Source: an uncultured bacterium (lineage in GTDB: Bacteria > Desulfobacterota > DSM-4660 > Desulfatiglandales > JALVMZ01). Taken from it: 64,000 nucleotides of DNA. The position numbers and the translations under genes were made by a program. The notes under the pieces are model-generated. The model did no database searches and was not told where the DNA came from. It worked only from the letters and a program-made list of their open reading frames with translations. Shown piece by piece: positions 35,542 through 36,504 of this stretch (positions are counted from its first letter, which is position 1; each line of letters starts with the position of its first letter). Location: NCBI GenBank assembly GCA_965613025.1, contig CBFDUE010000003.1:3363-67362 (forward strand), read 5' to 3'.

Positions 35542-36504
35542 ACCCCTGAGTATCTTTTGAGCTTCTAAGGCATCTGGTGTATCAGGGAATCTATTTATGA
35601 CTTTTTTAAGCAGAATCTTTGCGCTTATCTTATCATCTAATTTCATAAATGCCCTTGCCTGGCGAATAAATACCCTGGGAATCTTATTGCTTTTGGGATA
35701 ATCCTTTATAACTTTCTGATACGAAAGAATAGCCTTTTCAAACTTATTTAGACGAAAATAACACTCTCCCATCCAGAAATAGACATTATCCAAAAGAGAG
35801 GATTGGGGATAGGTATCTATAAGTGCCTGAAAACTCTTTAGTGCCTCTTCATACCTTCCATCTTTAAACAGATTAAGGGATTGTTGATAGAGCTCATCTT
35901 CAGTTAAGGAAGCCTTTGCCTGTTTAAGTGATTGAGAAGTAACTCCTTCTCCCTCCTTTTTCTTCAGTTTCTCTTCCAACTGAGTTAATCTCTTTGATAC
36001 CTCTAAGATAGCATTCTGTATTACATCCTGTTCACTTAAGTCCTTTTCTATGGAATGTCTTATAAGTTGCCTATTTTCATCCACTTTCCCTGATAGATCC
36101 CTAAGGGAACCCTTTAAGGTATCAATCTCCGAGCTAAGCTCTGCCTGAGATGAATGGATCTTGCTTAGTCTCTCTTCTAATACATGCTGCATATCTGATC
36201 TGTCTTCTTCAATGGCCTTTTCAAGGGTATCTATTTTCGTTTGAAGGTAGGCAATCTGTTCATTTAATCTCTTGATATCTTGATCATAGGCACATGAAAG
36301 ACACAGAAGAAGAAATATTAATAATGAGAGCTTTGCATAACCCCTTTTTACACTGGGGGTTACACCCCCCTCCGGGTCGGATGACCCTCTGGGGCGGAGA
36401 CCAGACCCCCAAAAATTAACTTTAAATAACCCATAATTACAGCTTCTCTCCGAGAGCTTTGAAAAATTCAAAGCTCTCAATAATATAAGGATTCCCTTTT
36501 TCAT
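35533..36504 (-). CDS. cpoB: Tol-Pal system protein CpoB/YbgF (coiled coil + TPR), carrying an in-frame MITE insertion in its signal peptide
   Basis: C-terminal YbgF-type TPR domain (YQQSLNLFKDGRYEEAL...YPKSNKIP...) and an N-terminal coiled coil. Last gene of the tolQRAB-pal cluster. I preferred the ATG at 36504 (MKKGILILL) over the track TTG at 36510. Confidence 0.8.
   Translation of the reverse strand: MKKGILILLRALNFSKLSERSCNYGLFKVNFWGSGLRPRGSSDPEGGVTPSVKRGYAKLSLLIFLLLCLSCAYDQDIKRLNEQIAYLQTKIDTLEKAIEEDRSDMQHVLEERLSKIHSSQAELSSEIDTLKGSLRDLSGKVDENRQLIRHSIEKDLSEQDVIQNAILEVSKRLTQLEEKLKKKEGEGVTSQSLKQAKASLTEDELYQQSLNLFKDGRYEEALKSFQALIDTYPQSSLLDNVYFWMGECYFRLNKFEKAILSYQKVIKDYPKSNKIPRVFIRQARAFMKLDDKISAKILLKKVINRFPDTPDALEAQKILRGLR
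36326..36478 (-). mobile_element. MITE-like element, copy B (153 bp), inside the cpoB 5' coding region
   Basis: Perfect 10-bp terminal inverted repeats GAGAGCTTTG (36326-36335) and CAAAGCTCTC (36469-36478). Flanked by the direct 6-bp repeat AATAAT (36320-36325 and 36479-36484). Confidence 0.75.

Follow-up and report, generated by a model that had tools for sequence, protein, structure and literature searches.

What becomes of a gene for an exported protein when a transposable element lands in the very sequence that directs its export? The question is raised by a window of 64,000 nucleotides (the whole stretch of DNA analyzed here, positions 3,363 to 67,362 of contig CBFDUE010000003.1, from an uncultured, sulfate-reducer-like bacterium of the Desulfobacterota), in which a miniature inverted-repeat transposable element (MITE), referred to below as copy B, lies inside the signal peptide of ybgF (cpoB) and leaves the open reading frame (ORF) of this gene uninterrupted. 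The function of ybgF appears to have been kept, most likely because the 53 extra amino acids sit in a leader that is cleaved after export. We give a probability of about two in three to the reading in which the gene is still made with its extension, the protein is exported and the leader is removed.

The ybgF ORF (35533..36504, minus strand) is open throughout and encodes 323 amino acids plus a stop, with a coiled-coil N-domain and a C-terminal TPR domain. Copy B (GAGAGCTTTG...CAAAGCTCTC) occupies 36326..36478 on the same strand (153 bp; nhmmer E=2e-53 against the profile of its family) and is flanked by a 6-bp target-site duplication, ATTATT, whose left copy lies at 36479..36484 (ATCATT in the alleles of a second clade, clade 2) and whose right copy, at 36320..36325, codes for the L-L of a rebuilt hydrophobic core. 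The minus strand reads ATG AAA AAG GGA ATC CTT ATA TTA TT|G AGA GCT TTG ... AAG CTC TC|A TTA TTA ATA TTT CTT CTT CTG TGT CTT TCA TGT GCC across the insertion, and the corresponding empty-site sequence is GGAATCYTTATATYATTAATATTTCTTC. The insertion splits codons 9/10, copy B being read in frame as ybgF codons 9 (third base) to 60, and it cuts off the original start codon and the first part of the signal peptide (MKKGILIL-L; 36479..36504, minus strand) from the remainder. Together with one duplication the element measures 153 + 6 = 159 nt, exactly 53 codons without a stop, and only one of its six frames is stop-free, namely the one used by ybgF. On the minus strand, three internal features matter for what follows: a 27-nt terminal palindrome, GAGAGCTTTGAA-TTT-TTCAAAGCTCTC, made of the left inverted repeat and an inner inverted copy (36452..36478); a 33-nt G+C-rich module of 11 codons, LRPRGSSDPEG, which is missing from the 120-bp alleles described below (36370..36402); and the right terminal inverted repeat CAAAGCTCTC (36326..36335), which recurs in direct orientation as the palindrome's inner arm. 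The boundaries at 36320-36484 and the 323-codon frame bear out a preliminary description of this DNA, made from its letters alone, which had reported an in-frame MITE with a 6-bp duplication, amounting to 53 codons without a stop. An assembly artifact is unlikely because the same sequence recurs in independent assemblies: contig L003 is 99.8% identical to the window over 13.4 kb, and contig L054 carries both of the element copies present in the window and encodes a mature YbgF 100% identical to that of the window.

When the element and one duplication are removed, the leader becomes MKKGILILLIFLLLCLSCA, with a Cys at position 18. That such a deletion restores a lipoprotein-type leader had been proposed before, and comparison with orthologs agrees: a lipobox Cys is present in 106 of 120 homologs, most often at residue 19, and in an alignment of 13 sequences the column of Cys71, the corresponding residue of the present protein, is at least 90% conserved, the motif C-A-x-x-x-D-L/I-K aligning with C71-AYDQDIK of the window. 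In the same alignment none of the distant orthologs has anything in place of the 53 residues, so that the comparison with orthologs proposed in the preliminary description finds the insert wholly missing from them. In the present allele, the last codons of the element plus the duplicated target specify ...VKRGYAK-LS-LL, which runs directly into IFLLLCLSC. The rebuilt core (LSLLIFLLLCL) and lipobox, LSLLIFLLLCLS-C, thus follow the element-encoded KRGYAK and span codons 59-71 (36292..36330, minus strand; Cys71 at 36292-36294). The uncharged stretch before the Cys is 12 residues long, versus 14 in the ancestor, and the 58 residues upstream of the core comprise 11 K+R versus 3 D+E, a net charge of +8. 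The earlier remark that KRGYAK and LSLL re-create a charged region in front of the hydrophobic one therefore stands.

These features suggest the following scenario. In an ancestor of the lineage, the MITE would have jumped into ybgF where the gene encodes the hydrophobic core of its lipoprotein-type signal peptide, and the insertion would have been tolerated because 159 nt is a multiple of three, because the sole stop-free frame of copy B happened to be in register, and because ...KRGYAK-LSLL and IFLLLCLSC together supply a new positively charged region and an uncharged core of 12 residues ahead of the old lipobox Cys. Translation would start at the old ATG (36504) or nearby and proceed through the whole element; the 58-residue basic extension would remain cytoplasmic while the rebuilt core engages Sec; the Cys would then be lipidated and the whole leader, including the peptide encoded by the element, cut off at the lipobox, leaving mature YbgF unchanged. 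Such a removal would explain the survival of this insertion in a family that is otherwise intergenic. We infer the translation start, export, lipidation and cleavage of the extended YbgF from its sequence. As for the in-frame insertion, chance and selection are enough to account for it, because about 13% of the family members, if placed at the ybgF site in either orientation, would leave the ORF open.

The close relatives provide a series of alleles of the same insertion. Eight orthologous ybgF contigs from several samples (the window, L002, L092 and L124-L128) represent six distinct alleles, and in all eight the element is found at the same site of ybgF. The preliminary description had reasoned that its interpretation would fail if relatives lacking the MITE had the 53-residue segment; what the close relatives carry is the element itself, with its inverted ends and duplication. 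Three forms exist: the 153-bp form of the window (also in L003 and L054), which adds 53 amino acids (323 in total, Cys at 71); a 120-bp form in L002, L092 and L125-L128, which adds 42 (312 in total, Cys at 60); and in L124 a remnant reduced to the 27-nt palindrome, which adds 11 (281 in total, Cys at 29) and gives the leader MKKGIFISLRALNFSKLSLLIFLLLCLSC. In the 153-bp and 120-bp ybgF copies, CTCAGAAAAAAGC, the usual sequence of the family, is replaced by a private signature, CTCGGAGAGAAGC, which indicates that the ybgF insertion was a single event, and the L124 remnant is the product of a deletion, by recombination, between the direct repeats CAAAGCTCTC. Both length differences (33 and 93 nt) are multiples of three, and the 251-codon mature region is intact in 8/8 ORFs, without stop or frameshift. 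We considered the in-frame 33-nt deletion as an independent proof of selection on the frame, an argument that is weakened by the frequency of the 120-bp form in the family at large (118-120 bp in 21 of 51 full-length BLAST hits to the element). The extension probably carries a mild cost and is in the course of being shortened; the existence of the shorter in-frame alleles suggests that it is trimmed rather than needed. In a search of 5.8 billion proteins, close relatives of the protein formed two clusters only, the next match being 38% identical, and no element-free close ybgF ortholog was present among the protein matches or cluster members, no DNA search aimed at the empty site having been made.

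The mature part of YbgF is under purifying selection. Its ratio of nonsynonymous to synonymous substitution rates (dN/dS) is 0.20-0.30 between the window and each clade-2 allele (p(neutral) 3.8e-7 to 1.6e-5), 0.24 without the hypervariable linker, and 0.13-0.26 when alleles of the 120-bp form are compared with one another; the value for pal is 0.07. The element and its surroundings are strikingly uniform: in comparisons with L125 and L126, which extend over 5.6-6.8 kb at 5.6-6.2% divergence, no run without substitutions is longer than the tract 36481-36253 (195 aligned nt), in which the element is followed by what remains of the leader and by the first ~22 codons of the mature part. Between clades, the 120 shared nucleotides of the element show 0-1 substitutions, where a synonymous divergence of 0.13-0.24 predicts ~15 or more. 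Other substitution-free tracts, of 125-254 nt, occur along the locus, whose divergence is a mosaic. The linker between the coiled-coil and TPR domains (35914-35969) occurs as two very different haplotypes (KLKKKEGEGVTSQSLKQAKA vs. RIKRGESWGAPTISPQKTEA) that are shuffled among alleles, a sign of recombination within ybgF. The substitution-free tract reflects either a recent short recombination tract that brought the element-bearing allele from one clade to the other or a constraint on the element; because the locus is a recombination mosaic, we rejected the low divergence of the element as a proof of constraint.

Several observations weigh against a leader that is translated, used and removed. 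No Shine-Dalgarno sequence lies near the ATG at 36504, and in a predicted mRNA fold (-85.8 kcal/mol, z=-4.4) the AUG is paired with sequence just past the element, so that expression could be low. With an n-region of 58 amino acids and a Cys at 71, beyond the usual ~40 residues, the present leader is very long for a lipoprotein: a Cys within roughly the first 40 residues is found in the restored and remnant forms but not in the 153-bp or 120-bp alleles. The lipobox, C-L-S-C, fits the L-[AS]-[GA]-C type at -1 and -2 but is atypical at -3, where it has a Cys, a PROSITE-style pattern being unmatched and a relaxed one matched; the preliminary description was right about the type of leader and slightly generous in calling the signal peptide textbook. 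The allele with 11 extra residues is known from the single contig L124. In Escherichia coli, ybgF/cpoB is dispensable, and a loss of function need not be purged quickly. Finally, if the substitution-free tract results from recent recombination, the insertion would be younger than the divergence of its flanks, and dN/dS values between clades would be less informative about the time after the insertion.

Several of these points would also suit an insertion that inactivates or mis-targets YbgF, with a pre-protein that stays in the cytoplasm or uncleaved in the inner membrane, and a gene that is a young, undecayed pseudogene. Besides the predicted burial of the start codon and the dispensability of the gene, such an outcome could be expected from a hydrophobic core that has been split and from a Cys71 and 58-residue n-region outside the normal geometry of lipoprotein leaders, and the scarcity of differences in the element tract might be due to a recent insertion. 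We nevertheless consider inactivation or mis-targeting unlikely, given a mature region free of stops and frameshifts in all contigs and in several samples, the dN/dS values obtained both between clades and among alleles with the 120-bp form, the preservation of the frame by both length changes within the element, and the fact that an element-bearing allele is the only one found among the protein matches and cluster members. Among the three outcomes listed in the preliminary description (a 53-residue extension, mis-targeting or inactivation), the evidence thus favors the extension, with function kept; the series of three in-frame alleles and the purifying selection could not be seen from the letters of the window alone.

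The uniformity of the element could alternatively mean that it has been co-opted, the extension or its RNA structure tuning translation or export of ybgF and being held by selection at the nucleotide level. The scarcity of substitutions relative to expectation, the length of the substitution-free tract and the strength of the predicted fold, which includes the AUG, all point in this direction, and the private signature rules out homogenization by other copies. But relatives have lost 33 nt, and one of them 126 of the 153 nt, while keeping the gene, which indicates that the full element is dispensable; the mosaic divergence and the other tracts devoid of substitutions make a short recombination tract the simpler account; and the argument for constraint rests on two clades. 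Co-option is on these grounds improbable. The same degree of doubt applies to a leader selected as such, either as a transposon-derived two-part leader resembling the extended signal peptide region (ESPR) of type V secretion proteins or as a structured 5' coding RNA that throttles the synthesis or export of YbgF, and spread from one diverged lineage to another by short-tract recombination. If true, selection on the leader would account for the element being the best-conserved part of the locus, as well as for the failure to find an allele without it.

From codon 12 to the mature protein, neither the window nor the alleles of relatives have a canonical start codon (ATG, GTG or TTG) in frame, and any protein that keeps a leader must therefore be translated through the element. 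It is very improbable that translation begins at a noncanonical or internal codon close to the element's downstream end, which would turn the element into a 5' leader RNA and yield a short leader. In favor of such a start, a Shine-Dalgarno-like sequence, AAAAAGGGG, lies near this end, where the AAGGGG motif at 36341-36346 might help initiation; gene callers disagree about the start; and another family copy (L016, see below) sits at a start codon and regenerates the ATG by its duplication. Against it, the sole ATG past the Shine-Dalgarno-like motif is out of frame, lies 2 nt away and begins an ORF of just 6 codons; initiation at an ATA or CTG would give no charged n-region; and if the element were untranslated, nothing would require the 33-nt and 93-nt deletions to preserve the frame, or copy B to have the TTTAAAG variant, through which the TAA present in the ybgF frame of most family members is lost. 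The two gene callers that disagree place the start at the TTG of codon 9 in proteins P0001 and P0154 and at the ATG in P0153. Start-codon callers, and leader predictors limited to the first ~70 residues, will mis-handle such genes; here, two pipelines picked the TTG inside the insertion junction.

The identity of the host gene, given as cpoB/ybgF in the preliminary description, is confirmed by sequence and by synteny. The protein matches TIGR02795 with 105.1 bits (cut-off 90.1), whereas its score against the E. coli-type equivalog NF008068, 73 bits, is below the cut-off of 383; its C-terminal half carries TPR repeats. The gene is the last of a tolQ-tolR-tolA-like-tolB-pal cluster, directly after pal, which encodes the peptidoglycan-associated lipoprotein (36550..37161, minus strand). 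The spacer between pal and ybgF is the most diverged part of the locus. It contains a G+C-rich hairpin, GGGGAGAACTCTTCTCCCC (36522-36540), which is terminator-like on the opposite strand only and is missing from all clade-2 alleles through an 11-nt deletion. Farther away in the window, an 84-nt direct repeat of 71% identity (42051-42134 and 43281-43364, 1230 bp apart) lies in two adjacent genes of the MoeA family, according to the annotation of L003, and probably represents similarity between paralogs.

The element belongs to an undescribed and recently active MITE family of an uncultured lineage labeled Desulfobacteraceae. The window contains a second member, copy A (33123-33274, plus strand; 33117..33280 with its own duplication, ATTGAC), which is intergenic and shows ~93% complementarity to copy B, whereas the number of second-copy matches expected by chance is 0 with 27-nt and 50-nt probes. 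Copy A lies ~60 bp upstream of the start of a ClC/CBS channel ORF (33334) and could affect its promoter region; the clade-2 contig L125 lacks it and differs at the site by a 9-nt indel as well. We rejected the possibility that copies A and B form a composite transposon around ybgF and the ClC gene, since their duplications are distinct and copy A is absent from clade 2. By scanning with the 27-nt terminal palindrome, we found family copies at unrelated loci in no fewer than 120 metagenome contigs; the window and L001 contain two copies each. The family profile retrieved 78 complete copies, which reduce to 68 unique ones when their context is considered. The inverted ends GAGAGCTTTG.../...CAAAGCTCTC are conserved across these 68, and flanking duplications of 5-6 bp are usual. 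Complete copies measure 109-209 bp, the main forms of 120, 153 and 185 bp having 0, 1 or 2 copies of the 33-nt G+C-rich module (for example, L071 1268-1452; also L117, L063 and L004), and longer variants of 212-350 bp have only their ends in common with the family. Inverted repeats, target-site duplication, small size without a transposase gene and presence at many unrelated loci are the features of bacterial MITEs. Two further traits emerge from the alignment and the scan. The loop of the 27-nt palindrome (3-5 nt) can have either orientation (TTTTT or AAAAA), as would result from a flipping of the hairpin tip, and solo palindromes without the rest of the element occur at L019 2701-2727, L076 619-645, L077 932-958, L105 1275-1301 and ~16 other places; several of these are flanked by 5-7-bp direct repeats and look like remnants of the type of deletion seen in the ybgF gene of L124.

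Mobility of the family is shown directly by a pair of filled and empty sites at the ybgF stop codon. A 120-bp copy with the duplication AAGATA fills this site in L092 (1503-1622), L124 (5280-5399) and L125 (3939-4058), while a clean empty version is found in the window (35533-35541), L126 and L128. This insertion falls in the 9-bp overlap of the convergent ybgF and ClC-channel stop codons, and the AAGATA duplication together with the terminal G and C of the element rebuilds both: the TAG of ybgF is kept, that of the ClC gene becomes TGA, and both proteins are unchanged. Another copy (L016 2277-2391; also L097) has inserted where a type IV pilin-like gene begins (MREIDSGFTLIEL), and its duplication, CATGA, includes the start codon ATG; from a further ATG upstream, this element is also read through in the frame of the ybgF copy. 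It does not qualify as a second translational fusion, since the duplication gives the pilin-like gene its own ATG back. Target duplications of this MITE family thus repeatedly regenerate start or stop codons. Forced translational fusions, in which the element lies inside a long gene with no start codon of its own past the element, are limited to the ybgF copies among the 68: 44 of the 68 have no open frame at all, the frame used in ybgF is open in 16, and a family-wide tendency to sit in genes and encode a conserved peptide was not observed, the ybgF site being the only case.

Searches for the wider affiliations of the family returned little. An Rfam scan of 32500-37500 at E<=1 gave nothing relevant, the element corresponding to no described RNA family, and a BLAST search of the element against plasmids gave no match. 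In a genome collection, its 38-nt core was found in one metagenome-assembled genome only (L001, labeled Desulfobacteraceae), which indicates that the family is rare among species representatives. Looking for a parent insertion sequence, we combined left ends with right ends at distances of up to 6 kb and aligned the sequences that follow orphan left ends: among the 123 loci covered, only the 212-350-bp variants appeared, and no transposase-sized element with the family ends (>~350 bp). Within the element, matches to an outward promoter were weak consensus matches only, no more than in shuffled sequence.

How does this locus compare with known systems? The host protein resembles E. coli CpoB in being encoded by the last tol-pal gene, in its coiled-coil and TPR architecture and in its TIGR02795 match. 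Whereas the YbgF of this clade has a lipobox Cys, the E. coli protein has a type I leader and is soluble in the periplasm, and the coordination of peptidoglycan synthesis with outer-membrane constriction is a CpoB property known from E. coli only. As for the element, in-frame intragenic MITEs are already known: Rickettsia palindromic elements (RPEs), ERIC, QMITE1 and the MITEs of Anabaena (PMC10969869). Like RPEs, the ybgF insertion is an element of ~150 bp with inverted ends, lies in frame in a gene, is read as an extra peptide and has a host gene under selection. It differs in that RPE families are often found in genes, whereas here only the ybgF copies, of 68 unique ones, are forced translational fusions, and in that the insert lies in a leader predicted to be cleavable, as opposed to the mature fold for RPEs. 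No sequence relationship to RPEs was seen, nor is any expected from an unrelated host lineage and an element without an Rfam match. The extended leader also recalls the two-part N1-H1-N2-H2 leaders (ESPR) of type V secretion proteins, as Desvaux et al. (2006) are cited in PMC3223724: in the terms given there, both consist of a charged and a hydrophobic segment, a second such pair and a cleavage site, over ~50-70 amino acids. According to the same account, the ESPR is a conserved, family-specific sequence found on autotransporters and processed by signal peptidase I, whereas the YbgF extension is transposon-derived, belongs to a lipoprotein-type leader and, in contrast to the ESPR so described, has as its first hydrophobic segment only a stump of 5-6 residues. 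The BKC-1 carbapenemase, in which a 16-residue duplication gives a functional leader of 46 amino acids (PMC8262980), is likewise a natural in-frame insertion in a signal peptide that results in an unusually long leader; there, however, the insertion is a tandem duplication of the h-region without a mobile element, and export was demonstrated experimentally, whereas that of YbgF is deduced. Two-part leaders and BKC-1 are precedents in which long leaders, or leaders extended by an in-frame insertion, do function. Our literature search, partial in its coverage, found no earlier report of a MITE inside a signal peptide. The locus amounts to a natural experiment on the tolerance of signal peptides, in which wild populations carry 53, 42 or 11 extra residues ahead of a rebuilt hydrophobic core in a gene under purifying selection, and it suggests a rule whereby intragenic MITEs survive in the parts of proteins that are cleaved off. 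The family is new, and its ybgF copy is a new instance of the known in-frame intragenic type of MITE; what is distinctive, relative to the systems above, is its position in a presumably cleavable, lipoprotein-type leader together with a natural series of in-frame alleles in three steps.

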